Source: a virus (lineage: Duplodnaviria; Caudoviricetes). Taken from it: DNA of 26,695 nucleotides. The notes under the pieces are model-generated. The model was given only the letters and a program-made list of their open reading frames with translations, was not told the DNA's origin and made no database searches. The stretch lies in the IMG/VR virus record IMGVR_UViG_3300001346_000054, positions 1-26,695 of that record, one strand, 5' to 3'. Numbering within the stretch: the first letter of the stretch is position 1; every line of letters starts with the position of its first letter. This document shows positions 1 to 17,501 of this stretch, one piece after another. The position numbers were made by a program, and so were the translations under genes.

Positions 1-467
1 GTGGTAGATTCTATCCATTGATCTACATTTTGTTTGATACCATACACATCTAATCCGTTTTGACTAGGAGCAACTATGTATACTTGATCTCCCATTTGCC
101 ATTGTTTTATTTTTAGTTTAAATTTGGCAAATCGTTCGTTAGTGTATTCGCCTTTTATATCTGAGATTTGATTTTCGTTGAACGTAACTCTCCAATAAAC
201 CGGCTTCCACCAATTACAATATCCTTTTTCAACATTCACATAATCGATATTTTTTTCTTGAAAAGACTCATGATACTTTTGAAAACCATCGTGTCCACCA
301 ACACCACCAAGTATTACTAAATCTCCTTGTTGGATATGATCAACATCTGAAAATATTTCTAAACCAGAACTTACACTAATTGTGTTTGCCAACTGAGTAC
401 AAGTACGTCTGCTGGTTCCTAAATCTAAACCTTTTGGAATTACTATTCTTTTGTATTGTTTATTCAT
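1..467 (-). CDS. KpsC/KpsS-like GT-B family protein, paralogue of the genes at 12128-15528; runs off the window edge
   Basis: Not in the ORF track. Read manually from ATG 467, overlapping the helicase stop: MNKQYKRIVIPKGLDLGTSRR...DYVNVEKGYCNWWKPVYWRVTFNENQ...ERFAKFKLKIKQWQMGDQVYIVAPSQ...DQWIEST. Open to the window edge and shares the vE/D-x-GY, R-x-K-x-W, ivaPS and dqW pattern with 14731-15528. Confidence 0.7.
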   Translation of the reverse strand, partial: MNKQYKRIVIPKGLDLGTSRRTCTQLANTISVSSGLEIFSDVDHIQQGDLVILGGVGGHDGFQKYHESFQEKNIDYVNVEKGYCNWWKPVYWRVTFNENQISDIKGEYTNERFAKFKLKIKQWQMGDQVYIVAPSQNGLDVYGIKQNVDQWIEST

Positions 468-1917
468 CGCCATCAAGGTTCTTTAAAAAGTCCCTCAACT
501 TTGTTTGATCTGTATTATCTGTATCGGCTTTGTGCAACGATTGTCCTTTTGTAGGATTAGGAACTTTTTCTTGTGATTCAGATGAATCTGTTGCATTATC
601 ATCTATAACTGTTGAAGTTTTTTTCAATGAGTTATATATGGTACTATTGCCACTGCTACCATAATTTTGTCCTGAATCATCTTCTGCTAGATCTCTTATT
701 CTTAAACTATCTAAATCAAATTCTAAATCTATTTTCTGACCAACACCGCTAGATGATCTAGTTTTCATTAATTGTATTTGATATCTACCACGTTCTCTCA
801 TTGCTCTACTTGTAAAGATACCAAACACATTATCAGCAGTTTGTATTTTACTTAAACCTCCTGATATATGACTGTGGTCAAATTCAATTTCTTCAACTGC
901 ACCTCTGTTCAACTGTGATGCTGTGACAAAGATAACATTTAATTCCATTGACAAGTTTCTTAATTCTTCAGATACAAATTTATCTTTAACAAACAAATCA
1001 CTTGGAGAAACTTTTCTACTGATTGGCATCATAAGATCCAAATAGTCAACCAGTATAACATCTAGTTTACTGCCAGTTTTAATTTCATATTCTTTGAGAT
1101 AACTTCTTAAATCGTTTGCGTTTTTACCACTTGCCATGTATTTGATTTGAAACTTACCTGCTTTTTTGCCAAGCAGTTTAACTTTCATTTCTACACCATC
1201 TAAATCTTTAAATATTTCTCTAGCAGGCACATCAGTGAGCATAGAATCTAGTCTCATACTTACTAGTGCTTCACTTAATTCAAATGATACATATGCAACA
1301 TTTAAACCATTCAGCACCCAATTACAACCTAAGTTTGCAAGGAACAAAGACTTACCTGCACCAGATCCACCAGCAAATATATTCAATTCACCTTTGTTGA
1401 ATCCACCAAACAATTTTTTATCTAGTGTTGTCCATCCTGTGCTAACCTGACCGTTTTGATCTTTCAATCCCATTAGTCTTGCTTTAGGATCATCAAAATA
1501 ATCTGTTCCTATATCTTTGTGTAATCCTATTTGTACTGCCTTCTTGACCAATTCTTCAACTGGACCATATTCACCGTTTTCCAACATATCAGCACTTTTT
1601 AATATTGCTCTTTCCAAACTTTTGTGTCTAACAAATGTTTCAAAGTCATCTAATAACCAATTGAAATGTTCTTCAGTTAAATTATCTGCCGCCTTCAATT
1701 CCATATTACACGACTTGTTCACAATGTCATATGTTGGCAATGAATTATATTGAACAACATACTTGTTCACAAAGTCTGCTGTTTCTTGAAGTTTTCTATC
1801 AAACAGTGTGTAATCAAATATGGACTGACAACGCACAAATGTTTCTGCGTCACTTAACATCATTTCAAGATACAGTTTTTGTATCTCGTATCCGTAATCT
1901 TTATTTTGTTTAACCAT
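460..1917 (-). CDS. gp41: Replicative DNA helicase, T4 gp41/DnaB-like (SF4)
   Basis: Walker A GGSGAGKS, SFELSE, Walker B ILVDYLDLM, TASQLNR, QTADNVF, QLMKTRSS. Start moved to ATG 1917 (MVKQNKDYG), 7 nt after a TATAAT box. Confidence 0.93.
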   Translation of the reverse strand: MVKQNKDYGYEIQKLYLEMMLSDAETFVRCQSIFDYTLFDRKLQETADFVNKYVVQYNSLPTYDIVNKSCNMELKAADNLTEEHFNWLLDDFETFVRHKSLERAILKSADMLENGEYGPVEELVKKAVQIGLHKDIGTDYFDDPKARLMGLKDQNGQVSTGWTTLDKKLFGGFNKGELNIFAGGSGAGKSLFLANLGCNWVLNGLNVAYVSFELSEALVSMRLDSMLTDVPAREIFKDLDGVEMKVKLLGKKAGKFQIKYMASGKNANDLRSYLKEYEIKTGSKLDVILVDYLDLMMPISRKVSPSDLFVKDKFVSEELRNLSMELNVIFVTASQLNRGAVEEIEFDHSHISGGLSKIQTADNVFGIFTSRAMRERGRYQIQLMKTRSSSGVGQKIDLEFDLDSLRIRDLAEDDSGQNYGSSGNSTIYNSLKKTSTVIDDNATDSSESQEKVPNPTKGQSLHKADTDNTDQTKLRDFLKNLDGDE

Positions 1918-2911
1918 TGTCCTTATTATACCACATTTCTCCGTGAAAGTCAATGTGCTTTTGATATTTGGCACACACGGCACCTATACACGATCCAGGA
2001 TCACCAGGATTTGTTGGCACCCATATATCATCCCAAACTGCATTTAATTTACTCACAGCAGTTTTATTCAATGCACACCCGCCTACCAAAACTATGTTTG
2101 ATGTTTTGATATTCATCTGTATCCACGAACTTGCACACATCAACACTTGTTCAAAAATGTGCTGTGTAGTTGCGGCTAGATCTGCCATGTCTTCTTCTGT
2201 GTTCAATTCTGGTCTCCACCAATTACAACCTCTGTGTAGATTTATTCTTGTTTTGAAAGGCATTCTAGTGTCGATAATTTCTTCCATCATCATTCTATGA
2301 TACTTTCTCCAATTACCTTTTTTCGCCAATTGTTCCAATTTGTATTCTTCTGCGTTTGCTTTGAATCCACATCTTTGTGTCATTGCTGAATAAAACAATC
2401 CAATGCTGTGAGGATATCTTTGAGTGTATTTCTTTTCTAACTTGGTACCTCTGCCATGCCAAATAGTAAATGTTTCAAACTCACCAATCGAATCTAAAAC
2501 AACAACTGCCGCATTTTTAAATCCCGATGTGTAATATCCATATGCCGCATGGCTATGATGATGATCAATATATTCTATAGGAACATTGTGTACACCAGAT
2601 TTTGCTAAAAACTTTTTGATATTATTTTCTTTCCATTTCCAACCTTGTCCTGCAATGAGTTGTCTCATAGTTTTCTTCAAAGGCTTTTCATAAAAATAAA
2701 TCTTTGCAGGGTAGGCCCATTTAGGATTTGCTCTTACTTCTGCCATTAGTTTCGGACACAGGGTAGGATCACCAGGCACACCACTGAAGTCTTTGCTCAT
2801 GCCTGCCCATTTTAATTTTAGAGCATAGTGATCAGTTAATCCTTGTACCTTCCATTCCATCACTGCCAAACTGGCATCGTGATTGTTTCCTGTTATACCC
2901 CAAACTATCAT
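1910..2911 (-). CDS. Carbamoyltransferase (NodU/CmcH/TobZ family), N-terminal Kae1-like domain only
   Basis: GITGNNHDAS, HHHSHAAYGYY, VLDSIGE, SIGLFYSAMTQRCGF, VGGCALN, PGDPGSCIGA motifs. The ORF ends about 22 aa after the last motif, with no C-terminal YrdC-like domain. Confidence 0.85.
   Translation of the reverse strand: MIVWGITGNNHDASLAVMEWKVQGLTDHYALKLKWAGMSKDFSGVPGDPTLCPKLMAEVRANPKWAYPAKIYFYEKPLKKTMRQLIAGQGWKWKENNIKKFLAKSGVHNVPIEYIDHHHSHAAYGYYTSGFKNAAVVVLDSIGEFETFTIWHGRGTKLEKKYTQRYPHSIGLFYSAMTQRCGFKANAEEYKLEQLAKKGNWRKYHRMMMEEIIDTRMPFKTRINLHRGCNWWRPELNTEEDMADLAATTQHIFEQVLMCASSWIQMNIKTSNIVLVGGCALNKTAVSKLNAVWDDIWVPTNPGDPGSCIGAVCAKYQKHIDFHGEMWYNKDNG
1925..1953 (-). promoter_or_regulatory. 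Sigma70-type promoter TTGACT-N17-TATAAT with extended -10 TG, upstream of the helicase
   Basis: Minus strand reads aTTGACTttcacggagaaatgTGgTATAATaaggacaATG; lies inside the 3' end of the carbamoyltransferase gene. Confidence 0.8.
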
Positions 2912-3084
2912 CTTTCAATTACCCAAGCTCTATGATAAAAATCGTCTATATTTTTTTGAATCAACGACTTTGCTAGTTCGTTGGCTTCTTTTTTATTCAT
3001 AGGACCGTATTCCTTTCTCGTTGTTTTATCCAAAGTTTTCATATTATTTGGATTTGTGTGAATTCCTTCTATTACAAAATACAT
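2908..3084 (-). CDS. Small protein (58 aa), possibly DUF4170-like
   Basis: Not in the ORF track. MYFVIEGIHTNPNNMKTLDKTTRKEYGPMNKKEANELAKSLIQKNIDDFYHRAWVIER; ATGA overlap with the carbamoyltransferase start and 1 nt from the upstream TAG. Confidence 0.7.
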   Translation of the reverse strand: MYFVIEGIHTNPNNMKTLDKTTRKEYGPMNKKEANELAKSLIQKNIDDFYHRAWVIER

Positions 3085-3085
3085 T

Positions 3086-3220
3086 CTATTTGTAAATAAA
3101 AGGGTCTCTTTTTTGTAATTCTCTAATCTTCTTCTTGTATTTGATGTATGTTACAAGTTTTGTGATAGGGAAAAACAAAATTGAAATCGCTTTTTTTATA
3201 AAATTTTTTATGCGAACCAT
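3086..3220 (-). CDS. Small basic hypothetical protein (44 aa)
   Basis: Not in the ORF track. MVRIKNFIKKAISILFFPITKLVTYIKYKKKIRELQKRDPFIYK; overlaps the primase end by 13 nt and fills the gap. Confidence 0.65.
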   Translation of the reverse strand: MVRIKNFIKKAISILFFPITKLVTYIKYKKKIRELQKRDPFIYK

Positions 3221-4212
3221 TTTTTCATCCTCAGTTTAGTTTTTAATTGTGAATCTTCAGCATTTTTAATTATTGTGTACAATGTATGAAGTCTACCATA
3301 TTTACATACAGCATCATTGACATCCTTGATTTCTTGATCCCAATCCGGCATACTGACACTCCATCCTGTTTCAAGACTGTCCCAAACTAGTTTTTGTCCT
3401 GCTTCGTCTCTGTCGGGAACCACAATCACATGTTTTCCTAGACTATTCACCAGTGTCGATTGTTGTTCTTTGATCTCACTGCCTAATAGAGCAACGCCAT
3501 CAACAGCAAGTGCATCAATGGGACCTTCCATTGCTACGATATATTTTCTGTCATCATCTTGAGCATCTGTGTTGAACACATATCCTGGTTGTTGTTCTGA
3601 TAGATATTTTACTTTACTCTCCACAACCTTTCTTGCTGTGTATCCAACAATTTTTGCTTGATGCATAAAAGGTATAATCAATCTATCTCTGAATCCTGCT
3701 TCAGGACTCCAATAAAAATCATAATCATCCAGTGTCAATTTTCTTTTAACAATATATTCCATCACAGAAAATAAATCTTTATCAACACCGCCCGGTTCTA
3801 AATCTTTGTATGTTGCCCATTCATGTATTGGTTTTGCTTTAGGCGGCAGTTCCTTAATCGTAAATTTTGGCAATGTGACAATCGATTTAAATCCAGTGTC
3901 ATCGGTCTTTTGTTGTAAAACCTGAAGTGCCAATTTTGTGATTACGTCATCAGGCATGTTCAACCATCTCATAAATTTTTTCATTTTATATGATAAATTT
4001 CTTCCGATACGCCAACTTGTTTTAAACCCACAGTTGAAACAATGGAAACTTACACTCTCGTCTGCTTTGGCAATCAATCCTCCTCGTTGTCTTGTATCAG
4101 GAGTTGTGCCGTTGTGTTGACAACACGGTGCGTTGAAAGCCACCCAACCACTAGGGGTCTGTTTTCTTTTAGAAGGAAGATAAGTTTGTAAAACGTCAAG
4201 CACAATATTCAT
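3208..4212 (-). CDS. gp61: DNA primase, T4 gp61-like (Zn-binding domain + TOPRIM)
   Basis: N-terminal PCCQH...FHCFNCGF Zn site, RLIIPF...GYTAR, KYL, TOPRIM MEGPIDA, VVPDRDEAG, KDVND. Confidence 0.9.
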   Translation of the reverse strand: MNIVLDVLQTYLPSKRKQTPSGWVAFNAPCCQHNGTTPDTRQRGGLIAKADESVSFHCFNCGFKTSWRIGRNLSYKMKKFMRWLNMPDDVITKLALQVLQQKTDDTGFKSIVTLPKFTIKELPPKAKPIHEWATYKDLEPGGVDKDLFSVMEYIVKRKLTLDDYDFYWSPEAGFRDRLIIPFMHQAKIVGYTARKVVESKVKYLSEQQPGYVFNTDAQDDDRKYIVAMEGPIDALAVDGVALLGSEIKEQQSTLVNSLGKHVIVVPDRDEAGQKLVWDSLETGWSVSMPDWDQEIKDVNDAVCKYGRLHTLYTIIKNAEDSQLKTKLRMKKWFA

Positions 4213-4218
4213 GCTTTT

Positions 4219-4247
4219 ATTATAAATTAAAAAGTGATAAAAGTCAA
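4219..4247 (-). promoter_or_regulatory. Sigma70-type promoter TTGACT-N17-TATAAT upstream of the primase
   Basis: Minus strand reads aTTGACTtttatcactttttaattTATAATaaaagcATG. Confidence 0.82.
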
Positions 4248-5033
4248 TTAATTTCGAATTAATATTTTGGTAACGCTACCAGAAGTGAGTGTATGCTTGA
4301 ATCTCAAATAACTGTATACTCCATTGAAGTTTACATATTCTAAACTGTCTGAAAGTGTTGACGTGAAGGTGTTAATATCTGACCAAAATGTATCTCCATC
4401 AACTTGATTGGCAAGAGTTCCTTGCACAACGATATCACCAACTGCTTCATCAAGATAATATGCCACAGTGTGCAGTGCCGAATTGCCATTGATTGTTGGT
4501 TCTGCTGTGATTGTTTCTGAAACAAACACCCCTGAACTTGGGTTGTCTTCAGTAAATGTTGTCACTGAATACGAATCTATTGGACCTGGAAATTCTTCTG
4601 TGCTCACAAACACTGTGCCTTTATTTGAAAAATTAGTACCACTATGCAATATAGTTTTTGATGCATCTGAATTTTTTTGTAGATACACAATGTAATGCAT
4701 GTATTGGGATTTTAAGTTTAATAAATCATTTTCAGATATCGTAATTGTAAAGTGTCCCACTTTGCTTGGTGTAGATGTCTCGATCACTGTTCCATCTTTT
4801 GATACTACTAATCTGTTGTTTTCGTCATACATTTGAAACTTAGGTGTGTATGTATCCAGTATAGACACGGGTTTCTGATCTGCATTAAGCACATTGAATT
4901 GAACTAGGTTGTCTATTCCTTTTGCGATGTTTAAATTTCTCTGATACACTGATCTATACTCCGTTATTTCTCCTGCCAGGTTTGCGGTAAGAGTCACACT
5001 GTTATTTAATAAATATTTTGGCACAAGTTGCAT
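4248..5033 (-). CDS. Hypothetical beta-rich protein, probably virion structural (BppU-N/Ig-like)
   Basis: S/T/N-rich with alternating hydrophobic strands (KGIDNLVQFNVLNADQKPVSI...GHFTITISENDL); preceded by a CAATAAATA late-type box. Function is inferred. Confidence 0.5.
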   Translation of the reverse strand: MQLVPKYLLNNSVTLTANLAGEITEYRSVYQRNLNIAKGIDNLVQFNVLNADQKPVSILDTYTPKFQMYDENNRLVVSKDGTVIETSTPSKVGHFTITISENDLLNLKSQYMHYIVYLQKNSDASKTILHSGTNFSNKGTVFVSTEEFPGPIDSYSVTTFTEDNPSSGVFVSETITAEPTINGNSALHTVAYYLDEAVGDIVVQGTLANQVDGDTFWSDINTFTSTLSDSLEYVNFNGVYSYLRFKHTLTSGSVTKILIRN

Positions 5034-5042
5034 AATCTTATG

Positions 5043-5051
5043 TATTTATTG
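5043..5051 (-). promoter_or_regulatory. T4 late-promoter-like box CAATAAATA
   Basis: Minus strand CAATAAATAcataagattATG; the AATAAATA core is one mismatch from T4 TATAAATA, and the same 9-mer recurs at 16221 and 25231. Confidence 0.6.
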
Positions 5052-5059
5052 ATATTAAA

Positions 5060-5425
5060 ATGCTGTTAAACGACATAGAAAAGAACTTTCCGTTTATCTC
5101 GGTCGTCGAATACGGTGGAAAAGAGTACGTTGGGGTAATCAACAACCAAGATACCTCTATTACCTCTATCTATGTGTACGAAGAAATACACACAAACGCC
5201 AGAGAAAAATTCATTAAATTGTGTCAAACTTGGTGGTGGGAAAGCAATAGGATGATCCCTATTAATATTTTTCTGCGTAAAGAATTAGCGAAATTCAAGG
5301 ATGTCTTGATGATGATGAACACAAAAGATGTCAGTGTAAAGATCGGTCCAATCACAAGCCTTAGTAATCTTGCCATGAAACGAAGCAAGAGAAAATCAGT
5401 CCAACTGGTTCGTAAGCCTAAATAA
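5060..5425 (+). CDS. Hypothetical protein (121 aa), the only credible plus-strand gene
   Basis: Fills the gap between two minus-strand genes, starts with ATG, and its stop abuts the mini-DnaE stop. WWWESNRMIPINIFL motif and a basic C-terminus. Confidence 0.75.
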   Translation: MLLNDIEKNFPFISVVEYGGKEYVGVINNQDTSITSIYVYEEIHTNAREKFIKLCQTWWWESNRMIPINIFLRKELAKFKDVLMMMNTKDVSVKIGPITSLSNLAMKRSKRKSVQLVRKPK

Positions 5426-5983
5426 TCAAGTTAATTGTTCACAGATAAGATTCATGTGTACAACCACGGCGAATGCATATGATGTTGCGTGAGATTTCTT
5501 AAAGAAGTATTTGTCATCTGTTGGCTTTGTCCATACTTCTTGCATTATTGTGTTCCAATCTTTGTGTAAAAGATACCGTTTACTTGGACGTATTATTGCC
5601 AACACAGCCGCTAGTTGTTCTATGTTTTTAGGTTTCAATGTTTTTAATATTTCATTATGTCCGTTTAAATGAAAGACTTGATCACTAAATTCTTTTGCTT
5701 CTAATAGTTCCCACATCGGTTCTGTTGTCATCAGTTTGTTTAAATGATCGTTGTCTTTTACATCTTTGTAGATACTGACATTTAAACAATCTAGTTTGAA
5801 GTAATTTCTATCTTCAGCAGTTTCGTAATCCAGAGTGGACAAGTTAGTAGCAGGATCATGAGGAATTTCTGTGAAGTAGACTCCAGTGTTGTGCTTCTTG
5901 CCGTTTCCTAGTTTGGCAATTCTGTGTTTTAGTTTTTCTAACAACACATTTCTATCTGCAAAGTCTATATCTACATCAAACAT
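5426..5983 (-). CDS. dnaE: Miniature DNA polymerase III alpha (DnaE/C-family)-like protein, 185 aa
   Basis: DnaE motifs in canonical order: DVDIDF, KHNTGVY, FKLDCL, QVFHL, LKPKNIEQLAAVLAIIRP, YFFKKSHATSYA. Confidence 0.8.
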   Translation of the reverse strand: MFDVDIDFADRNVLLEKLKHRIAKLGNGKKHNTGVYFTEIPHDPATNLSTLDYETAEDRNYFKLDCLNVSIYKDVKDNDHLNKLMTTEPMWELLEAKEFSDQVFHLNGHNEILKTLKPKNIEQLAAVLAIIRPSKRYLLHKDWNTIMQEVWTKPTDDKYFFKKSHATSYAFAVVVHMNLICEQLT

Positions 5984-6636
5984 TATAATACCAATTTGCT
6001 GTGTCCACCACCTATTTCACCTTTTACCCAAACATTAAATGACAGGGAGTGTCTTACATTAGTTGTGCTAGTGTTGACTTCAACACTGTGATTTAAAAAA
6101 CTTGGAAACATAACCAAATCCCATTTCTTTGGACTAATTGCCATTTTAGATTGATGATATAGATAACTTCTTTTGTTAACATAATCAAATTCATCTTTGT
6201 GATCTAATCTAACTGTATCAGTAAAAATATTTGTATGATTTTTATCTTTATGAAATACAATATTTGCTGTGTCTTGACAATCTGATAAAAACAATACTCC
6301 GGATATTAAACTGTTACTATGATAATGTTCCTGTATAAAATGGTTATGTTCATATCTATTACACCAACTTGTTGTAATAATAAATTTATGTTTCTCGTGT
6401 ATGTCTAAATATCCATGCATAAATTCACTTACTTGCGTTTCGATTTCTTTTTTAAGTGGCATTAAGTTTTCATTATCTAGCACATAATCATCTTTAGACA
6501 TGTATGATACTTTGTGTGATCTTTCAACATATTCTATTTTTTCTTTTAGAAATTTTTCACTTTCTTCGTATGGTTGTATTTGTGTCTGACAAAGTGGTAT
6601 TCCAAATAATGGAACAACATTGTGTTCTTTAATCAT
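5983..6636 (-). CDS. Putative 2OG-Fe(II) oxygenase (TIGR02466-like)
   Basis: PLFGIPL start, SWCN, HYHSNSLISGVLFL, FPSFLNHSV, RHSLSFN. Confidence 0.85.
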   Translation of the reverse strand: MIKEHNVVPLFGIPLCQTQIQPYEESEKFLKEKIEYVERSHKVSYMSKDDYVLDNENLMPLKKEIETQVSEFMHGYLDIHEKHKFIITTSWCNRYEHNHFIQEHYHSNSLISGVLFLSDCQDTANIVFHKDKNHTNIFTDTVRLDHKDEFDYVNKRSYLYHQSKMAISPKKWDLVMFPSFLNHSVEVNTSTTNVRHSLSFNVWVKGEIGGGHSKLVL

Positions 6637-7316
6637 AGTTTTGCCTCCTTTATTACTTCTTTCACCATTTCAACATCTGCCGGCAACCGTTTGAACCTAA
6701 GTGCCCAATGTGATGGATCCATCACTGGATACACAATCTGTAATTGTTCGTCATTAAAATTCTTCATCATGGTTTTGCCGCTTTTACAATTTAATATTAA
6801 CCAAGGTGATATCTTTCCGTCTTTGATGTCTATCACTGCTCTATTAAGACTTGCATACCTAAAATAATCACTCCAAGGTGCTTGTTTTTCATCGCCCCAA
6901 TCCATCATTGTTTTAATTGATCTTTCCATTGCTGTTTCTACACGTTCTCTTAAAATTAAATCACCTGCATATTTTAAATACATTTCTTCTCTACACCAAT
7001 GATCCAATTTTACACCAGAGGTGACCACATAGTCGATGTATTTGTTAGGATATAATGGTTTTACGTTACTAATAAAACTGCCAAATTTTACAAATGCCGT
7101 ATAGTAAGGTGATTTACAAAATTCTTCATATGTCTTTGTCTTAGTGGATTTTTGACATAATTCATAAAATCTAACAAATGTTTGAAATCCCAGTTGCACT
7201 CTTCGTTCATCTTTTTGTGTAAATCTTCTTTTTTGTTCACACATATGCACTGTTAATGTTTTTTCTTTGGCAAATTTTGCATTACAATATTTGCATGAAT
7301 AAAGTTTTTCAATCAT
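6633..7316 (-). CDS. Hypothetical protein with N-terminal C2H2-like zinc finger
   Basis: YSCKYCNAKFAKEKTLTVHMC fits Y-x-C-x2-C-x3-F-x5-L-x2-H; the rest looks helical and is unassigned. Confidence 0.7.
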   Translation of the reverse strand: MIEKLYSCKYCNAKFAKEKTLTVHMCEQKRRFTQKDERRVQLGFQTFVRFYELCQKSTKTKTYEEFCKSPYYTAFVKFGSFISNVKPLYPNKYIDYVVTSGVKLDHWCREEMYLKYAGDLILRERVETAMERSIKTMMDWGDEKQAPWSDYFRYASLNRAVIDIKDGKISPWLILNCKSGKTMMKNFNDEQLQIVYPVMDPSHWALRFKRLPADVEMVKEVIKEAKL

Positions 7317-7795
7317 TAAAATGTTTTCTTAATTTGTTCTTTTGTCATTCCTAAATCTTCTGCCAATTGTTTTAATTCTTTTGTTGTGTTAATACTTGCT
7401 AACAGTTTTAATTCATCTTCTTTTCTAGACGGATACAATTTTTCTAAAAACTTCATTGCTTTTGCCGTACTGTTGCTACCTTTTTGTTTGTAACCAATCC
7501 ACTCATGATATCTTATTGATTTTGTATCATTAGCAGTCATACACAACAAAAACCATAATAACTTTTTGTGTTTGGTCAACGTAAAGAAATTTTTGTTGTA
7601 GTACTCGTTTGTCTTGAATATTTGTAATTGCTTTTCTTCGGGTTTTCCTTTGATAGCACTAACATATCTATTCAATAGATAAAACGATACCTGCTTACGT
7701 TCATCATCAGATAAGTCGTCCCATACATTTTTAGCATTCATATCGATAGCCGCCAGTATGTCTTTTAAAGGTAGTTTGTTTGTTTTTGTTACCAT
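7316..7795 (-). CDS. Probable clamp-loader small subunit (T4 gp62-like)
   Basis: Size (159 aa), the pattern FYLLNRYVS...N...LLWFLL...EWI...KFLEKLYP and replication-gene context. Confidence 0.6.
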   Translation of the reverse strand: MVTKTNKLPLKDILAAIDMNAKNVWDDLSDDERKQVSFYLLNRYVSAIKGKPEEKQLQIFKTNEYYNKNFFTLTKHKKLLWFLLCMTANDTKSIRYHEWIGYKQKGSNSTAKAMKFLEKLYPSRKEDELKLLASINTTKELKQLAEDLGMTKEQIKKTF

Positions 7796-8037
7796 CTGTT
7801 TTCTTTAATTAGATTATACATTAATTTTAACTTCTTTAACTGTATTTGTAAAGACTTGTTTCCTTCATTTGCATAATCTACAACTTCGTTTATCTCTAAT
7901 TCTGTCAAATACCAATCAGGATATTTTGGTTCTTCGATCAGCACACGTTCACCTTTGCCATCAATTGGTCGAGCATACACAGTTGCTCCACCGTCTGGAC
8001 TTTCGTAAATCATTGCACTTTCTTTCTTTTTTGGCAT
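7789..8037 (-). CDS. Small hypothetical protein (IYESPDGG motif)
   Basis: 82-aa ORF tightly coupled to both neighbours. Confidence 0.7.
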   Translation of the reverse strand: MPKKKESAMIYESPDGGATVYARPIDGKGERVLIEEPKYPDWYLTELEINEVVDYANEGNKSLQIQLKKLKLMYNLIKENRW

Positions 8038-8543
8038 TACAACAATGATGTGTACTCTATACTTTCACACTGTCTTGAAATATCTTTTACAAAAAATGCA
8101 CAATCTGGACTTTTTGTATCAGTCAACGGAGTTGACAATAGTTGATTATTTTTTATTTTTGGAAAGTACCATTTTACATCATTGTAAAAGTTTACAACGT
8201 TCACTTCGTAAAAATCTGCTTTAAATCCATCTAGTGGATTAAAAATAAATGCTGAGAATCCTCTATCTGCAATACTTGTTAATGGCACAACTTCAACTGT
8301 GTTGCTGTCTTCTTTGTCGCCAACTGCTATACTCCAATCCAACGGCATGGTAATCTCTTTACCATTGATATCTAAAACTATTGCTGGAGCATTAAAAGAT
8401 TCAATATAAATTAATGGCAAGAAAAAGAAGTCTGGCTCCTTTGGGTTGCTGTTATCTAACACACTGAATGCCATGTCGTCTGACACTGTTTGTGGCATTT
8501 TGTTTAGATCGTATGGAGTGTTCTCCACTGTTAATATTTTCAT
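8037..8543 (-). CDS. Hypothetical beta-rich protein (168 aa)
   Basis: ATGA and TAATG coupling on either side; function unknown (see finding on the Hint-like pattern). Confidence 0.75.
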   Translation of the reverse strand: MKILTVENTPYDLNKMPQTVSDDMAFSVLDNSNPKEPDFFFLPLIYIESFNAPAIVLDINGKEITMPLDWSIAVGDKEDSNTVEVVPLTSIADRGFSAFIFNPLDGFKADFYEVNVVNFYNDVKWYFPKIKNNQLLSTPLTDTKSPDCAFFVKDISRQCESIEYTSLL

Positions 8544-9367
8544 TTGTTTGTTCCTTCCGAAAATGAATGAGTTATGTTACTATGATCATAGTAAAAATAT
8601 TGTGTGCCTGTTTTGGGTGCTTTGTGTTTTGCCTCTAATGGAAGATAAATGCCTGATGTGAAAGATGTGCCATCTTGTGTTTCTACTCCATGTATGTGCC
8701 AAGGATTGTCCACAGCCAATATTGGTGTGTTAGTTGCATAAGCAACCAATTGCGTACATGCATCATGAAAGTTGTCGTGTAATAGTTTAACATGTTTACC
8801 TTGATCCTTTTGAGTGTTACTTGCATGTATTATTAAATCGGGTTGTGCATTTTCTTTAAGTTTTTTAGCAAGATTATCTCCACCCCAATAATAATTACCA
8901 ACAAGATCATTACAGATAAGAGCACCGATCTTTAACTTATCTTCTCCTTTTGTGATTGTTACCACTGGGTTTTTTGTTTCAGGTTCACAGTCTGCATCAA
9001 AACTTACAAGTTTAGATTTCTTTGTAGATCCAATATATTCGCCTTCTTGATTATAAAATCTTAATTGATTTGATTTGACTCCGAAAAATGCACCATTAAC
9101 TTTGTCTTTGTCTTCTAGCCACAGTGTGCCAACAATTAATCCTAGTTTGTGGCTTGATGCATATTCTACTAATTTTTCTAATGCGTCTTCTGTTTCTTTA
9201 CAAGTATTGATATTGAATGCCATAGTGTTGTAACCACTCAATGATGTTTCCGGTGTAAACAAATAATCTACTTTATTTTCTACCGCCCATTCGCATGCCT
9301 TCATTATGTTTTCAAAATTTGTTTTAACATCGTTTGTTACTGGTATTTGTGCACCTGCTATTCTCAT
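8540..9367 (-). CDS. Carbon-nitrogen hydrolase (nitrilase superfamily)
   Basis: MRIAGAQ start (ATGA overlap with uvsW), FTPETSLSGY (Glu), KKSKL (Lys), GALICNDL (Cys): the E-K-C triad is present. Confidence 0.85.
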   Translation of the reverse strand: MRIAGAQIPVTNDVKTNFENIMKACEWAVENKVDYLFTPETSLSGYNTMAFNINTCKETEDALEKLVEYASSHKLGLIVGTLWLEDKDKVNGAFFGVKSNQLRFYNQEGEYIGSTKKSKLVSFDADCEPETKNPVVTITKGEDKLKIGALICNDLVGNYYWGGDNLAKKLKENAQPDLIIHASNTQKDQGKHVKLLHDNFHDACTQLVAYATNTPILAVDNPWHIHGVETQDGTSFTSGIYLPLEAKHKAPKTGTQYFYYDHSNITHSFSEGTNK

Positions 9368-10821
9368 TTTGTCCAATCCACCTTTTCTATTGTAAAAGGA
9401 TAATTTGCTTCCTTATAAAATTTTTTTCTATGTGTTAAATGTCTTTTAGCAAATTTGCAACTTGAAGTAAGATCCCAAATTTGCACAAAGTCTTTGTCTT
9501 TGGCTTTACGTATTCCTCTGCCAATCGATTGTATAACTCTCACAAATGATTTGCCAGGCTCAATCAATATTAGATTAAATATTCTCGGTATGTTAATACC
9601 TACACTGGCTACACCATATGTTGCAATAATCACTTTGTTGTCTGAATCACTGATTTCGTCATACTGTTCTTTTCTATCTGCCAACTTTGTTTCACCTTGA
9701 ATAAACACACTATCGTCTATTAGTTCTGCTAATTTTTTTCCTGCTGTAAGTCGATCAACCAGCACAAGAGTGTTACCACCGCTTTTAATTTTGTTACACA
9801 ATTTTCCAATGTAATCTATTCTTTTTTCATTTGTGACCAAGTATTTTAATTCTTCTTGATAGTTTGTGTAAACTTCTGTGTCAATCAACTGTACCACATT
9901 TACATGACATTTAGATAAAACACCTTTATCTTGTAACTCTTTTGCTGATATCTGATTAACAACAGGACCAATACTTGCTAGTATGCTTTGAAATTCAAAC
10001 TGTTCTTTCGGCACTGTGCCAGTCAGTCCCCATCTCACAGGAGCATTTCTAAGATGTTGTGTTAACAATTTTTTTAACACTTCTGCCTTTGCTTGGTGAA
10101 CCTCATCTATGATAACTGTTTTCACTCCGTCTAAAAAATCTGCTAGAGTTAACACAGATTCTCCTGCTTTAGATTTCTTATCCAGCACATTTAGACTTTG
10201 CCATGTGCAAATTGTGTGCGTACGATTTAATTCTTTTCTGTCGCCGAAATATACTCCCACGTCCAGTCCCACATTTACGTAATCTTCTTCTGTTTGTGTA
10301 ACCAATCCTTTGTTTGGCACAATCACTAGTGTACGTCCAAACTTTTCACATATACTGCTCAATGCCGCAGTGATGATTGTTTTACCAGCACCAGTGGCAA
10401 CCTCTTGTAAACTTTGTGGCTCTTTTATAAAATTATTAATAACATCCACTTGATAATCTCGCAATTCGATTGGTTGTCCTTCGCATATGTGTCCTTTGGG
10501 CCACGATTTATCTGCAAAATAATCTTTATCAATTTTATCAAATACTAAATCAAATTTATGTCTTTTGTCATCTACTTCTTCTATCTCAACACCCGATTCG
10601 TGCAGATATTCTATAATCTTTTCTAAATGATTCACATAACCATTACCACCTAAACCAAAGAAACCAACCTTACCATCCCATCTACCTAATTTATACTGTG
10701 GCAAGTAACGTGCATAAGGCACTGAAAATTTAAACTTATTTGCAATCTTTCTTCTAACGTCAACAGGCAATCCTTCGATCTTTACATTGACCTCGTCTGT
10801 GATTACAATTTTACATCTCAT
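9364..10821 (-). CDS. uvsW: SF2 DNA helicase UvsW
   Basis: GRWDGK, LRDYQ, ATGAGKT, IIDEVH, GLTGT, SVGINIP, QSIGRGIR, HLTHRKKFY. Start moved to ATG 10821 (ATGA overlap). Confidence 0.92.
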   Translation of the reverse strand: MRCKIVITDEVNVKIEGLPVDVRRKIANKFKFSVPYARYLPQYKLGRWDGKVGFFGLGGNGYVNHLEKIIEYLHESGVEIEEVDDKRHKFDLVFDKIDKDYFADKSWPKGHICEGQPIELRDYQVDVINNFIKEPQSLQEVATGAGKTIITAALSSICEKFGRTLVIVPNKGLVTQTEEDYVNVGLDVGVYFGDRKELNRTHTICTWQSLNVLDKKSKAGESVLTLADFLDGVKTVIIDEVHQAKAEVLKKLLTQHLRNAPVRWGLTGTVPKEQFEFQSILASIGPVVNQISAKELQDKGVLSKCHVNVVQLIDTEVYTNYQEELKYLVTNEKRIDYIGKLCNKIKSGGNTLVLVDRLTAGKKLAELIDDSVFIQGETKLADRKEQYDEISDSDNKVIIATYGVASVGINIPRIFNLILIEPGKSFVRVIQSIGRGIRKAKDKDFVQIWDLTSSCKFAKRHLTHRKKFYKEANYPFTIEKVDWTK

Positions 10822-12104
10822 ATAGTATCTGCTCCATAATGCACTCGACTCCAATAACTATCTTGACCATTAATTTGTAATTGCAAATCAATTGTGCTAA
10901 CATATTTGTCCACTTTGGTGTAGGCTCTTGTGTTATCACAAACCAACACTGCTTCGGCTTCCCAATCAGATGTTAACAACGGCTTCGGAATCTTCTTACT
11001 TGTAATATACACTATTTTTGTTGATTTTGCAAGTGAATTATTTAATTGATTATCTTTCACATATTCATTAAATTCTTTACCAAAACTTGTTGAATTTTTA
11101 CATCTTGCCAATACAGAAATTTCATTTTTAGGTATAAGATTTTTAAACAGTTTGTGTGTGTTGTGCAAGTCTTCCAAACTGTTTTGTTCAGTGTCACCTT
11201 TCAAAACAACCATTAATGGAAATCTTCTTAATTCTATTACTGTATCCACTATTTGTTCTAGTTTCCATTTTTCGGAATCTAAATTTATTTTTGAATATTG
11301 TCTTTCTAATATTGCTTTTGATAGTGTTGATAAATTGCTTGATGACTCTGCTAAATTGTTTTTATCAAAATAATGTAAACCTAGTTTTTCTTTTCTGTCA
11401 TAATATAGATGTAAATTTTCTTTTGCTGGATCGCCAAAATATTCTCTATGGTATTGTGTGGTAACTGGTGAACTATTTTTGATTTGATAGTTGTAAATAC
11501 CAGGCACAAATTGATCGGGTCTTTTGTAAAGTTTTTCACATTGATCATGCACATCTAATAACACAGGGTCAATGTCCTTAATCTTATTTTTAAAGTTAGA
11601 TATCAGTCTGTGTACAATCTTTTCTGTGTAAGGCAAAATGTATTTGTCTTTTAATTTTTGTGAGTAATATCTGCTTGGTACAGGGCCTAGCAATTTTCTT
11701 ACTGCTGACATGGCTTTTGAATACGTCATGTTAAATGGGAATCTAACAACAATAACTTTTTGTGGTGTAAATCCTGACCAATAAGGTTCTAAATAATCAC
11801 TACCATTTTCTATTCTGATGTATTCACTTCTATCTAGATGTCTTAAAGGTTGTCTAAGGTTGTTTACGCTGTTTTCTAAATCTATGCCTCGTATTCTAAA
11901 TTGTGATTTATATCTTGTAATTAATATTTTTTTCACTGCTTCCAACTGCCTATCAGTGAGTGCTGTGCCTTTAAAAACCTTCTTGGCAATGTCAAAGATA
12001 ATTTTCTTATCTCTGTCTAACACTATAAATGCAGGCACCACAGTGGCATTGACAGCCAGACCTGCCATCAGTTCTAAACATTCTTCTATGGTAATTTTAC
12101 GCAT
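10818..12104 (-). CDS. Hypothetical protein (428 aa) coupled to uvsW
   Basis: Long intact ORF with its own sigma70-type promoter and an ATGA overlap with uvsW; no catalytic motif recognised. Confidence 0.75.
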   Translation of the reverse strand: MRKITIEECLELMAGLAVNATVVPAFIVLDRDKKIIFDIAKKVFKGTALTDRQLEAVKKILITRYKSQFRIRGIDLENSVNNLRQPLRHLDRSEYIRIENGSDYLEPYWSGFTPQKVIVVRFPFNMTYSKAMSAVRKLLGPVPSRYYSQKLKDKYILPYTEKIVHRLISNFKNKIKDIDPVLLDVHDQCEKLYKRPDQFVPGIYNYQIKNSSPVTTQYHREYFGDPAKENLHLYYDRKEKLGLHYFDKNNLAESSSNLSTLSKAILERQYSKINLDSEKWKLEQIVDTVIELRRFPLMVVLKGDTEQNSLEDLHNTHKLFKNLIPKNEISVLARCKNSTSFGKEFNEYVKDNQLNNSLAKSTKIVYITSKKIPKPLLTSDWEAEAVLVCDNTRAYTKVDKYVSTIDLQLQINGQDSYWSRVHYGADTI

Positions 12105-12110
12105 ACCATT

Positions 12111-12139
12111 ATTATAAATGATTTTGGTTAAAAAGTCAA
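12111..12139 (-). promoter_or_regulatory. Sigma70-type promoter TTGACT-N17-TATAAT for the uvsW operon
   Basis: Minus strand reads aTTGACTttttaaccaaaatcattTATAATaatggtATG; the -35 box lies in the last codons of the upstream gene. Confidence 0.82.
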
Positions 12140-12964
12140 TCTTGAAAAAGGCGTGCCCTGTGCTATTTCTTCAATTGTCCATTCAGTGTGCGTGTAATCA
12201 TTAAGCCATTGCTGTCTAGCAGGGGTCTTTGGGCTGTTAACGGTGCTGAAATCTGTGTTTGCAACGTCATAAGCAAGGCTTTGTTCACCCACAAAAGCAG
12301 GAATACCATTCAATACAGCATGTATTCCTGGGTTACTGCTGTAACTTACAACTGCCCAAGCATTAGAAAAATTTAAGTCAAAATCATCATATGTGTTTGC
12401 AATTTGTTTTGGAATTTCGTAATTGACATTTTCTAAAATAGGTGGATTTTGTAATACACATCTAGGATGAGATCGTATTATGATTTTTCTATCTGTGTGT
12501 TTTCTTATGGTATTCACAGTGTCTATAACATATTGTTCTTGTGTTGGCATATTTTTCCATTGTTCACTTTTGGTGTGTTGTAAACATACTAGAATGTGTT
12601 CACCATCTGTACGCCAAGGCTTGAGATCAAGATTAAATTGTTTTACTCTGTCATTGTTATTATTTTTTGGTCCGAAATCTCCTGCTCTATTAATTCCATT
12701 CAATCCAACTTTCCAAGTTGTATTTCTTTTTATACCACCCACTTCCACTACAAGCACATTTTTATTTTTGGATCTAAAATGTTCCCAAACAGATTTATTT
12801 TTTGTCATTCTTCCATTCCACAACAGTGACCAAATTACAGGAACTTCTGTGTCTAGATTGTTTTGATCAACGGAGTGTCCTAATCTTTGTAATCCAGATT
12901 GTACAGCCTCCCATACAAGAGGACTGTTTAACGGACCGTTGTCTGTGAATAAACTAAATTGCAT
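12128..12964 (-). CDS. KpsC/KpsS (capsule synthesis)-like GT-B glycosyltransferase
   Basis: VVEVGG, LKPWR, LVCLQH, IRSHPR, AVVSYSSNPGIHAVLNGIP, RQQWL. Start moved to ATG 12964. Confidence 0.6.
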   Translation of the reverse strand: MQFSLFTDNGPLNSPLVWEAVQSGLQRLGHSVDQNNLDTEVPVIWSLLWNGRMTKNKSVWEHFRSKNKNVLVVEVGGIKRNTTWKVGLNGINRAGDFGPKNNNNDRVKQFNLDLKPWRTDGEHILVCLQHTKSEQWKNMPTQEQYVIDTVNTIRKHTDRKIIIRSHPRCVLQNPPILENVNYEIPKQIANTYDDFDLNFSNAWAVVSYSSNPGIHAVLNGIPAFVGEQSLAYDVANTDFSTVNSPKTPARQQWLNDYTHTEWTIEEIAQGTPFSRLTF

Positions 12965-13790
12965 TCCAGTATGACTCTGTGCGATTGGCAAGCAAGTCTT
13001 TCTTTTGGCTTTTTCCTTTATTTTTTCTATCGCCCTTCATGTGATCAAAGTAATTTCCTAAAACTGAGTTAATCAGCGGATGTCCACCACCACCTGTCTT
13101 AGCAGTTTTGTTGTATATGTCTTTTGAATAATCATGGAAGTTGTCGTCAATTGGTGCAAGTTGATTTAATATTTTGCCAAACACATAACTGTCGTGCCAT
13201 TCATCTAGTTTGAAAATTCCATTGTCTGCTTCTTGATACATGCGTTCAAATTCTTTTAAAAATTTTTTACAAGTGTCGTGTTTGTTGTTCAACCCATAAA
13301 AGCCACACTCGGGCCATGTTTGTGATCCTTTACCTCTGCCAACAAACGTTATCCATTTATCTTTTGGCAACAGTTGTGTGAATTGTTCGTAATTGATAGG
13401 TGAATGCACATAGGTGTCTGCATCTATCCACACAGTCCATGTGTCGTCAGTTCTATCCACAGCATCAAATACAGCATAAACTTTATTTGCAAATCTTACA
13501 GCGTCCCATTTAAATTCTTTATGATGATCTCTTGGACGCTTTTCTGGAAAAGGACATTTGCCATTTGCTTTTGGCACATTGCCCCAACGTGATTTGAATT
13601 GATTTAATTTTTCTAGTTCTTTTGAATCTATAATTGTTATTTGACTTGCATCTGGATTGACAGGCGTGCAATTTTCTGCATACACCAACAATTTAATTTT
13701 TTTGTCGACGTTATTTGCAAAACTGTCTATGAATCTTTGTCCGTACAAGTCTAGCCCTGATTTATGAAATGTAGTTAATGCAGTGATCAT
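12954..13790 (-). CDS. GT-A nucleotide-diphospho-sugar transferase-like protein
   Basis: KWDAVRFANKVYA, WIDAD (DxD), ECGF, EWHDSYVF, HMKG. Start moved to ATG 13790 (ATGA overlap). Confidence 0.7.
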   Translation of the reverse strand: MITALTTFHKSGLDLYGQRFIDSFANNVDKKIKLLVYAENCTPVNPDASQITIIDSKELEKLNQFKSRWGNVPKANGKCPFPEKRPRDHHKEFKWDAVRFANKVYAVFDAVDRTDDTWTVWIDADTYVHSPINYEQFTQLLPKDKWITFVGRGKGSQTWPECGFYGLNNKHDTCKKFLKEFERMYQEADNGIFKLDEWHDSYVFGKILNQLAPIDDNFHDYSKDIYNKTAKTGGGGHPLINSVLGNYFDHMKGDRKNKGKSQKKDLLANRTESYWNAI

Positions 13791-14734
13791 TTGACGTATT
13801 TCCTTAAATGTTTCCATGCCAATCCTGCTTTCACTTCGTCCAATGTCCAGTGTATTTGTGCTATGCGTCTTATCCACAGTTCTCTATCAAATTCTTTAGG
13901 AGATTCTATGTCTTGCCATTTTTCTAAATTCACTCCTTTAATTTGAGCACCGTCAGGGTCTGTGACCAATGTGGGTATTCCTTCGATAACAGATGCTACT
14001 GTTGGACTAGAGTTGTGTCCAACCACTGCATGTGCATGAGCAAATTCATCTATTAAGTTTTTTGCACCACTGATTGCAATATTTTGATATGTTGATTGTC
14101 CGCTGTTTATCCATTGTCTTACAAGATTAGCCCATTGTCTAGATGATTTATCTCCTGGGTGGAATCTTATTCTTATTTCTTTTTTTGTGAAACTTCTTAT
14201 TTGTTGAATAGCATGTTGTAACCAAACATTAACTTTTAGTCCACCCATACTCCAACCACCATCTCTCTGACAGCAGATTAAAATATATTTTCCGCCACCC
14301 AATCTCCAGGGTTTTAAATCTATGCCTAGGTCTTTTTTAATTATTTCCCATCGTAATGGATCTGGATTGTCATAACAGTATTCTGCTGTGTTAGGAAAGA
14401 TACCATCGTATCCATAACGCAAATAATTTTTTGATTGAGTTGGATCTGCATACAAAAACAAACTGGAATCCACAATCATGGTGCGTTTGTTTCTTTTTTG
14501 TTGTGTTTCAAACACAGATTTTCGTAACATTAGATGTCTGTGTTTTTGTGGTTGTTGATGTACAAATCCTTGTAGCACAGACACATCTGCTGGAACCACT
14601 GTCCAAGAATTGCTTATTATTCCTTTGTCGCCGCATCTATTCACACCTTCAATAAAGTTTTTTATTATTAAAGGCTTTTGTGGTTTTTTATTTCCAGGCG
14701 GAATAACCTTCATGTATCCTACAACACTAATCAT
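13787..14734 (-). CDS. KpsC/KpsS-like GT-B glycosyltransferase
   Basis: LKPWR, LICCQRDGG, IRFHPGD, AVVGHNSSPTVASVIEGIP, RELW. Start moved to ATG 14734 (ATGA overlap). Confidence 0.6.
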   Translation of the reverse strand: MISVVGYMKVIPPGNKKPQKPLIIKNFIEGVNRCGDKGIISNSWTVVPADVSVLQGFVHQQPQKHRHLMLRKSVFETQQKRNKRTMIVDSSLFLYADPTQSKNYLRYGYDGIFPNTAEYCYDNPDPLRWEIIKKDLGIDLKPWRLGGGKYILICCQRDGGWSMGGLKVNVWLQHAIQQIRSFTKKEIRIRFHPGDKSSRQWANLVRQWINSGQSTYQNIAISGAKNLIDEFAHAHAVVGHNSSPTVASVIEGIPTLVTDPDGAQIKGVNLEKWQDIESPKEFDRELWIRRIAQIHWTLDEVKAGLAWKHLRKYVK

Positions 14735-15528
14735 AATAATCCATATTTTTCCATTATTGCTTTTGCTTGTCCAGAACCCAATTCTCTGATATGATATTGG
14801 CAATACGCCAACCAATGTTGCCATTTGTGTACTTGATCTCTTGATGGATAGAATGGTGATTCTATCTTGCTTAAATCTTGTGATGTCACACTGTCTGCGG
14901 CAGTTCGTTCCATAGTGAATGCAGGCACACCTGCACAAACACTTTCAATAGCCGCAATAGACTGATATGTCACTGTGGCATAAATTTGTTCTTTTATTAA
15001 GAATTTAGGCACACTGCCTGCACCAACTCGTTCATGTCTTTTGCCTTTGTCTCTAACAATAATTTCTCTATCAGTGTATTTTGCTAATTCATTCAAAGTA
15101 TCATTGACCCATTGATCTCTGTTTATGTTATAATATTTACATGGCTTTTCACTTGGTACTACTAGTAAGATTTTACCTTTATGATTCTTACGCCATTCTA
15201 CAAATTCTAATTCAGGACTTTTTGCTTGTATCTTTCTCCAACGATCATCAGGAACATCAAACACTTGACTGTGTTGCACATCATTTTTTACAACTCTGTG
15301 AAACAGTTTTTTCTTTATGAGATTACCCACATATCCTGTGTCGATATAGTAAAATGTTCTTCCTGAATTTTTACAATCGTTGATTATTTTTCTTTTTGCT
15401 AGACTTCTAAAACTAACTGTGTTGTCCAAAGAAGTTTTTTTGATTGCTTCAAACGGTAGGAAATGAGCTCCTAGTCCTCTATTCCAGTGTTGTAGTATTT
15501 CATCTTGTCCATCAAAATAATAGTGCAT
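14731..15528 (-). CDS. KpsC/KpsS-like GT-B glycosyltransferase (HP motif replaced by RDK)
   Basis: YYIDTGY, ILLVVPS, IIVRDK, TVTYQSIAAIESVCAGVP, WLAYCQY; paralogue of its neighbours. Confidence 0.55.
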   Translation of the reverse strand: MHYYFDGQDEILQHWNRGLGAHFLPFEAIKKTSLDNTVSFRSLAKRKIINDCKNSGRTFYYIDTGYVGNLIKKKLFHRVVKNDVQHSQVFDVPDDRWRKIQAKSPELEFVEWRKNHKGKILLVVPSEKPCKYYNINRDQWVNDTLNELAKYTDREIIVRDKGKRHERVGAGSVPKFLIKEQIYATVTYQSIAAIESVCAGVPAFTMERTAADSVTSQDLSKIESPFYPSRDQVHKWQHWLAYCQYHIRELGSGQAKAIMEKYGLL

Positions 15529-15529
15529 A

Positions 15530-16213
15530 TCATTTACTATTCATCATTGTGTGAAGATATTTTTTCCAAACATCACCGTATTCGCAATTACGATAATTTT
15601 TGAACCAAGGGCCGCCTTCTGTGTAGTGTAAGGCGTTAGGCTCACCATCTTGTGGAGACTTATACCATCCCACAAGCCAATTCCAACTGTGATCGAGCGA
15701 ACCAATTTCTTCATCTTTCAACCAACTGAATCGGTGAAAGTATGCTCCATCATAATTGGGATTGTTTACTAAATCCACTGTTAATTTTTCGTTTGATTTG
15801 TGTCCACAGTTGTACAGCACAACAGAACTCCAATTTTTTCTTGGATACACAGTTTGTTTTTGACCATCCATTTTAATTCCAGGCTTGGGTGTGTAGTCAT
15901 GTTTTACACACATGACAGCATACTTGTCATCTGCTTGATCGAATAATTCTTTTATATCAGTTGTAAAAACTATATCGGAATCACAAAACAATGCCCAACC
16001 TTTATAATTTTCTAGGGCTGGTATTAAGAATCTTGTGAATGTAAACTCAGTTGATGCTAGTTTATCTAATTCTCTCCAATACCATTTGTCCTGTCGTAGT
16101 GTTTGTTGATTTAATGGTTGTACTTCTGCATCTGATGAATGTGTGTAGATTGAATGTTCGCAAACCTGATATGCAATATCTTCTCTCGTGTCATAGCCTA
16201 CAAAAACTTTCAT
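15530..16213 (-). CDS. GT8-like nucleotide-diphospho-sugar transferase (plant CDI-like family)
   Basis: MKVFVGYDTREDIAY, STEFTFTRF, ALFCDSD (DxD), YPRKNWSS, HRFSWL, WNWLVGWY, HYTEGGPWF. Start moved to ATG 16213. Confidence 0.8.
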   Translation of the reverse strand: MKVFVGYDTREDIAYQVCEHSIYTHSSDAEVQPLNQQTLRQDKWYWRELDKLASTEFTFTRFLIPALENYKGWALFCDSDIVFTTDIKELFDQADDKYAVMCVKHDYTPKPGIKMDGQKQTVYPRKNWSSVVLYNCGHKSNEKLTVDLVNNPNYDGAYFHRFSWLKDEEIGSLDHSWNWLVGWYKSPQDGEPNALHYTEGGPWFKNYRNCEYGDVWKKYLHTMMNSK

Positions 16214-16220
16214 ATAAAAA

Positions 16221-16229: not shown

Positions 16230-16235
16230 GCAAAT

Positions 16236-17500: not shown

Positions 17501-17501
17501 T

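Follow-up and report, generated by a model that had tools for sequence, protein, structure and literature searches.

The locus at 5426..5983 raises the question of how a protein of only 185 aa can carry the motifs of a family C (DnaE-type) DNA polymerase within a T4-type replication region, and whether such a protein can act as a polymerase by itself. The window, i.e., the whole stretch of 26,695 nucleotides that was analyzed, comes from a marine uncultured phage whose genome must be of jumbo size, because 26.7 kb corresponds to 7% completeness. The 185-aa protein is the C-terminal half (C-half; phrog_11778) of a split minimal DNA polymerase III (Pol III) alpha and equals residues 401-780 of E. 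coli DnaE with large internal deletions. The term "miniature polymerase" given to it in the preliminary description does not fit, since the protein provides only half of an active site, and the GS/R362 nucleotide pocket belongs to another gene.

Reading frame, motifs and family of the 185-aa protein

Direct translation of the minus strand from 5983 to 5426 gives 185 aa followed by a TAA stop, and the plus-strand frame at 5426..5983 is riddled with stops. In the sequence TAATG, the ATG overlaps the stop codon of the 2OG-Fe(II) oxygenase gene located upstream. The coupled start and the clean stop described earlier were thus found again, on a minus strand that had been left unstated. All six DnaE motifs were read from the translation at the places given before: D3-V-D5-I-D7-F, K30-HNTGVY36, F62-K-L-D65-CL, QVFHL (102-106), LKP..IEQLAAVLAIIRP (116-133), and YFFKKSHATSYA (159-170). 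The residues D3-x-D5-x-D7 (5963..5977; all motif coordinates refer to the minus strand) correspond to the metal ligands D401/D403/D405 of E. coli, as indicated by conservation and by residue 1 of the structural model falling on residue 401. H31-x-x-G34-V-Y36 (5876..5893) represents the HAGG strand of DnaE after the deleted thumb, according to the alignment to KHCGG of a compact DnaE. K63-x-D65 (5789..5797), aligned to the structure 2hnh, equals K553/D555 and includes the third catalytic aspartate. Conservation and profile alignment equate R132-P133-x-K135-(R/K)136 (5576..5590) with RP639-640 plus a basic pair, and F161-K-K-S-H165...Y169-A170 (5474..5503) with F756-N-K758-S-H760...Y764. The distance from DxD to the histidine is as short as had been claimed, with 23 residues between D7 and H31 compared to ~104 in the full DnaE fragment P0313 (hand count). 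The reported absence of GRGS was also confirmed, as the motif occurs neither in the 185-aa protein nor in any listed ORF of the window; three RGS strings are present, all in frames coding no listed gene at those places.

In the PHROGs database, the family phrog_11778 ("DNA polymerase") matched residues 3-183 with E 5.5e-59. The preliminary description had proposed two Pfam families as a check, and the outcome was mixed: DNA_pol3_finger matched with E 0.002, below its cut-off, and PF07733 matched nothing anywhere in the window. A single-sequence search of the PDB with the 185-aa protein returned no Pol III match, and a profile of 98 homologues gave nine matches, all nine to Pol III alpha chains (best E 2.5e-5). 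The profile alignment placed K63/D65 on E. coli K553/D555, R132-P133 on R639-P640, and FKKSH on F756-H760. The 98 homologues are a diverse set selected as full length (177-219 aa), in which D3, D5, K63, D65, R132 and P133 are invariant (98/98), so the catalytic aspartates, on whose conservation the earlier interpretation depended, are retained throughout. D7, H31 and H165 are present in 97, G34 in 96, K135 in 90, and R/K136 in 69 of these 98 sequences. Of the 8,000 candidates scored in the protein search with the C-half, 7,970 were hits. An identical protein is present on a contig of 231.8 kb, and near-identical C-halves occur on metagenome contigs. Among isolates, 96 records matched, and in 95 the match covered 80% or more of the query; the 60 isolate matches listed are jumbo phages such as PA5oct/Paride, Phosso, Atu_ph07, PBECO4/121Q and XacN1, with one record of 94 kb among them. 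The search of GTDB genomes, which reaches close relatives only, returned no close relative of the C-half. In Atu_ph07, the C-half lies at L336:6305-6799 (NC_042013.1 gp074), where the RefSeq start call (58304-58798) omits the N-terminal DxD and the match extends to 58864. The search for longer forms gave a single match, P0272, which was rejected as it looks chimeric, with an unrelated N-terminal part joined to a C-half without DxD and D65.

The AlphaFold2 model of the C-half reached pLDDT 95.5 and pTM 0.86. In a comparison of this model with 48,161 representative chains, DnaE or PolC took all of the first seven places (181-184 aligned residues, Z 6.5-9.9), and the next match after Pol III/PolC had Z 4.1. 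Foldseek led to the same result, and the top matches in BFVD were long DnaE-type proteins only. The model covers E. coli DnaE 401-780, and the superposition on DnaE that had been suggested is therefore successful at the level of prediction: the C-half is predicted to form a Pol-beta-type palm, on which the three catalytic aspartates of family C are located. Judged by length and alignments, the PHP, thumb, clamp-binding and OB domains of replicative DnaE are not present in the C-half. The earlier statement that the PHP, clamp-binding and OB domains are missing thus holds for this protein, and only its PHP part may fail for the enzyme as a whole, as a remnant of PHP may survive in collapsed form on the partner, which is considered below with low confidence.

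No stop was found in any of the 78 close homologues that match the C-half over 80% or more of its length. The median dN/dS is 0.023 (range 0.015-0.101), based on 19 pairs with usable dS (0.05-2) among 51 distinct sequences; every pair includes the window sequence, so the pairs are not independent. For the primase, dN/dS is 0.047. The gene is therefore a condensed DnaE derivative under purifying selection rather than a decaying truncation, as had been supposed.

The N-terminal partner, natural fusions and a proposed shared active site

The preliminary description had predicted a second small subunit with GRGS elsewhere in the genome. This subunit was found in related genomes, but not in the window, which is a 7%-complete fragment, and not in the closest long IMG/VR contigs (G001-G004). 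The N-terminal half (N-half; phrog_11127) has 161-194 aa (about 170), carries GxGRGSS, and is present in 4/4 isolates. All ten complete genomes, i.e., six of six IMG/VR records at least 90% complete and the four isolates, contain one N-half, one C-half, and a family B polymerase (PolB) each. The proposed search for a gp43-type polymerase therefore succeeded in these genomes, and no PolB was detected among the 34 window ORFs scanned. In a set of 28 records, which were chosen for holding one half, the full N-half occurs in 20, the C-half in 27, and both in 19; the other nine records are 21-80% complete. Among them, G017 (73% complete) is without N-half and PolB, and G024 (80%) is without C-half. 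Another record with an N-half, G018, has a C-half 65% identical to that of the window. The two genes are 15-224 kb apart (11 records), and none of the 336 loci contains both. Weak matches to PF07733/A2 were rejected as N-halves in G005, G007 and G016, where they represent a separate compact DnaE, and in G031 and G034, where they sit in frames of 420-563 aa; a further weak match, in G006, is cut at the contig end.

The GxGRGSS motif is present in all 85 distinct N-halves, a count that is biased because the loci were collected by the GRGS pattern. Equivalents of R324 and E328 are likewise found in 85/85, a tryptophan before GxGRGSS in 83/85, and H169 in 84/85. The GS motif and R362, which belong to the definition of family C, are thus located on the N-half and not on the 185-aa protein. 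The N-half chain ends 35-36 residues past the first G of GxGRGSS, just short of the point where the C-half starts, and its last residues are mostly E-F-L-K/R, with a terminal K/R in 84/85. Pairwise identities of N- and C-halves are correlated (Spearman 0.76; 17 genomes and the fusion, with W03 and G010 dropped as the pattern missed their C-half), which is attributable to shared ancestry. Trees of both halves are poorly resolved, and the fusion sits on a long branch.

Three natural in-frame fusions of N- and C-half from separate clusters (ENA, Logan) were identified: P0247, P0300 and P0301, of 375-376 aa. In P0247 (375 aa), phrog_11127 matches at 8-180 and phrog_11778 at 190-374, and the protein is colinear with E. 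coli 319-417 through the junction. The A6 alignment was chosen after trial alignments. An assembly chimera is unlikely because the clusters of P0300 and P0301 (376 aa; 81 and 78% identical to P0247, respectively) repeat the same join. The fusions are known from protein sequences, and their genomic context was not found. They keep the DnaE-like "IDP" at a site where split N-halves mostly have "INS". The model of fused P0247 (pLDDT 80, pTM 0.77) superposes on Mtb DnaE1 with Z 21.1 and rmsd 4.0 over 332 residues. All seven matches above Z 5 are Pol III or PolC (Z 12-21), and the next neighbors are the Pol-beta-type nucleotidyltransferases ANT(2''), CCA and MenT with Z up to 4.5. The prediction supports the view that the two halves form one active site, with the reservation that the fused model may lean on solved Pol III structures.

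By comparing the fused model with 16 Pol III/PolC entries, 318-348 of its 375 residues were aligned, and in all 16 the first aligned residue falls within 8-15 of DnaE or 343-349 of PolC, positions that we take to be the start of the PHP domain. The PHP-like N-terminal region of the model has pLDDT 44-64, and sequence comparison gave no support for a PHP relic in the N-half. Thus, with low confidence, the N-half may carry a collapsed PHP relic at its N-terminus. If real, the relic would mean reduction from a PHP-bearing enzyme and not a pre-LUCA module, which bears on the proposal of Iyer et al. (2021; PMC7824862) that the module models an ancestral Pol III.

The position of E. coli R390 is occupied by E in 83 and by D in 2 of the 85 N-halves. 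The equivalent of R396, which we assume to be relevant together with R390/R709/R710, falls beyond the end of the N-half chain. Moreover, E. coli residues 641-741 (~100 residues, including R709/R710) are reduced to ~12 residues in the C-half. PMC4374717, a source that has other numbering slips, lists R362, R390, R709 and R710 as residues in contact with the dNTP. The dNTP-binding arginines R390 and R709/R710 of family C are therefore absent from the split enzyme. Sequence conservation suggests that K135 and R/K136 of the C-half and the terminal K/R of the N-half may stand in for them. The loss is specific to the split form, since all of these arginines are retained in a compact phage DnaE of 543 aa.

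Gene context and possible function

The T4-type character of the region that had been noted before was borne out: DnaB, primase, UvsW and UvsX/Y surround the C-half in conserved order, as in group 2.2 jumbo phages. The window genes described here are on the minus strand unless stated otherwise. Domain and PHROGs matches identified a DnaB-like replicative helicase (460..1983), the 2OG-Fe(II) oxygenase (5983..6636), and a UvsW-like helicase (9364..10854), at which, according to neighbor counts, the conserved block starts. A DnaG/Toprim primase of T4 gp61 type (3208..4212; phrog_47, E 2e-34) is located within 4 kb downstream of the C-half in 96/97 loci. Directly downstream, the convergent conserved gene of unknown function phrog_11637 (5060..5425, plus strand) occurs within 700 b in 108 of the 118 loci with room. 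The fixed upstream neighbor, present in 119 of 121 loci with room, is a conserved C2H2-type Zn-finger-like protein (phrog_11058; 6633..7316), for which the C2H2 lead comes from one Atlas cluster (11% of members). Further upstream are a putative clamp-loader small subunit, T4 gp62-like (7316..7795; Atlas PF16790, 13% of one cluster, score 0.93), a lead found within 4 kb upstream of the C-half in 103/108 loci, and phrog_11279 (8037-8543), a core gene of unknown function that accompanies the C-half. The products of phrog_11058, phrog_11279 and phrog_11637 are candidate accessory subunits. Next to the N-half, GroES lies within 3 kb in 59/59 and an RFC-like clamp loader in 58/59 loci. For all neighbor counts, it should be considered that many of the loci are closely related or stem repeatedly from one contig. 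The gp62-like small subunit is far from the large clamp-loader subunit, which adjoins the N-half in relatives.

The 2OG-Fe(II) oxygenase gene is absent from that place in the isolates Paride and PBECO4. The oxygenase gene, a carbamoyltransferase N-terminal-type gene (1910-2911) and a carbon-nitrogen hydrolase gene (8540-9376) are inserted among the replication genes, and these three genes are possibly involved in DNA or surface modification. Between UvsW and UvsY/UvsX, ~13 kb (12128-25224, minus strand) encode glycosyltransferases (GT8, three GT25), two methyltransferases and an NAD-dependent epimerase, together with many other ORFs without Pfam match. Metatranscriptome contigs cover positions 1-12000 and show no transcription because the cover includes intergenic DNA evenly. 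The sigma-70 promoter scan of the window stayed below chance, and the T4 late-promoter octamer, in the form we presume it to have, gave no exact match in 1-26695 against ~4 expected, with all 100 shuffles yielding at least as many.

We hypothesize, with a probability of about 0.5, that both halves together make a low-processivity, primer-dependent polymerase, which likely extends primase primers or fills short gaps before the clamp-loaded PolB. The C-half would supply metal and template binding and the N-half (~170 residues) the GRGSS nucleotide pocket, and the two would pair as a heterodimer with a core of ~355 residues. This core would add dNMPs to a primer in short bursts, so that primase-made primers would be extended, or short gaps filled, at the fork, followed by a hand-off to the clamp-loaded family B polymerase. 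A similar hand-off, from DnaE to PolC, takes place in B. subtilis. A lack of processivity would follow from the loss of the thumb, the OB part and the clamp-binding part; according to PMC3656037, enzymes of family C need a clamp to be processive. As far as can be judged from sequence, the retained finger segment and the primase/clamp-loader context favor templated extension, and the context together with the universal presence of the enzyme favors a role at the fork. The context argument is weak because the core genes of these phages are generally syntenic, and XacN1 does not keep the primase context of the C-half. Moreover, the fixed E/D at R390 (85/85), the position of R396 beyond the N-half end and the deleted R709/R710 segment count against this explanation, as do the N-half of the window phage itself, which was not found, the distance between the genes, and the incomplete records G017 (no N-half, no PolB) and G024 (no C-half).

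Instead of routine primer hand-off, an active heterodimer could also serve in repair or in synthesis that depends on recombination, by filling gaps, extending UvsX/UvsW D-loops or bypassing lesions, which we consider unlikely but worth weighing. UvsW stands at the start of the gene block with UvsX/UvsY upstream, a core without thumb and clamp would suit short patches, and repair is named as an option by Iyer et al. (PMC7824862). By analogy, ASFV Pol X offers a precedent for a minimal repair enzyme (PMC11646218). However, the presence of the enzyme in 10/10 complete genomes and a constraint stronger than that on the primase fit an essential step better, and primase and clamp-loader genes are among the nearest fixed neighbors.

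Somewhat less probable is a repurposed split core, in which the same two-metal centre would add nucleotides without a template, make primers de novo, or transfer NMP to an RNA, a protein or a small molecule. Such a change would agree with the fixed R390 to E/D replacement, the loss of R396 and R709/R710, and the new conserved residues of the N-half (the tryptophan, H169 and the terminal K/R). The Pol-beta-type nucleotidyltransferases that follow in the structural comparison of the fused model point the same way, although at Z up to 4.5 they are far below Pol III (Z 12-21), and the finger segment, K553 and FKKSH..YA (K758, Y764) are retained.

It is improbable that the 185-aa protein does without the N-half, whether it works on its own, binds DNA or metal as a module without catalysis, or acts as a decoy of host Pol III. 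The predicted confident folding of the C-half by itself, the distance between the genes and the missing N-half of the window phage would allow it, but the halves co-occur in 10/10 complete genomes, have complementary ends and are naturally fused; the C-half alone is without the GS/R362 pocket, and Pol-beta-type nucleotidyltransferases are among the listed neighbors only for the fused model. Finally, the C-half is almost certainly not a decaying fragment of a full-length dnaE, even though it is short and most DnaE domains are missing, in view of the 78 homologues without stops, dN/dS of 0.015-0.10, the 177-219 aa of the 98 diverse homologues selected as full length, and the coverage of at least 80% of the query in 95/96 isolate records.

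Beyond the preferred role as a primer-dependent polymerase, a bolder and rather doubtful proposal may be formulated. The split mini-Pol III would be a re-wired nucleotidyltransferase in the core gene set of a very large group of jumbo phages. It would descend by reduction from a DnaE with PHP domain and not be a pre-LUCA survivor, its triphosphate-binding arginines would have been swapped, and it would act as a dedicated primer-initiating or -extending partner of the T4-type PolB replisome. If true, it would mean a Pol-alpha-like hand-off, of which we found no description for T4-like phages, and in the natural fusion, 375 aa in one chain would make up a very small family C polymerase. The gene itself is not a discovery, since an in silico description of the family was published in 2021. 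However, the split enzyme belongs to the core genes of a large phage group (hits for 7,970 of the 8,000 candidates scored; 96 isolate records), and the fusions, as single chains of 375 aa, lend themselves directly to examining whether a family C core without thumb and with altered arginines is able to polymerize.

Comparison with known polymerases

A split minimal Pol III is not a new finding. According to Iyer et al. (2021; Viruses 13:63, PMC7824862), a split minimal Pol III alpha occurs in group 2.2 jumbo phages (RaK2-like, Asteriusvirus, PA5oct/Paride, Atu_ph07, XacN1) and was proposed to cooperate with PolB in the synthesis of one strand or in repair. As in that system, the complete relatives encode an NTP-binding N-half and a Mg/template-binding C-half in genes that lie far from each other, and have a family B polymerase as well. 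The 185-aa protein is encoded as a short separate protein and spans the region of Pol III alpha that binds Mg (DxD + D) and the template; it is 51% identical to the C-halves of Paride and Phosso and 48% to that of Atu_ph07, and gene order is the same. The fusion, R390E, the possible PHP relic and the clamp-loader context were not found in the sections of the main text of that article that were consulted. Besides Iyer et al., a literature search for newer or experimental studies that left subscription journals mostly uncovered yielded only annotation-level mentions of the split enzyme (Attai 2018, fEgEco12, Matilda, and the marine PGC_A phages with PF07733).

A compact, PHP-less DnaE of 543 aa in a single chain (L069:553-2184 and L070:553-2184, both minus strand; also L037, L038, L044, L046, L050 and L051) was located downstream of the DnaB gene in relatives with a C-half 80-83% identical to that of the window, and compact DnaE-like frames of 563-582 aa were found in G034 and G027. 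Some relatives thus carry two family C enzymes, probably beside PolB. Like the split enzyme, the compact DnaE is a family C core that a phage encodes besides T4-like replication genes. It differs in keeping the equivalents of R390, R396 and RR709/710 and a longer C-terminal part, and it is patchy (six loci among those searched), unlike the split enzyme, which is core. ASFV Pol X is also a virus-encoded minimal enzyme of the Pol-beta fold (PMC11646218), but it belongs to family X and is a single chain, so the comparison is an analogy only.

The closest solved structures are those of bacterial DnaE/PolC (2hnh, 2hpi, 5lew, 3f2b). With them, the C-half shares the predicted Pol-beta-type palm, D401/D403/D555, K553 and the FNKSH..Y764 finger motif, and through the N-half, the split enzyme shares the GS motif and R362. 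On the other hand, it has ~355 aa in two chains compared to more than 1,000 in the bacterial enzymes, its thumb and ~100 finger residues are deleted, and there are no clamp-binding, OB and tau domains. R390 is replaced by E, R396 and R709/R710 are lost, and at most a relic of the PHP domain may be left.
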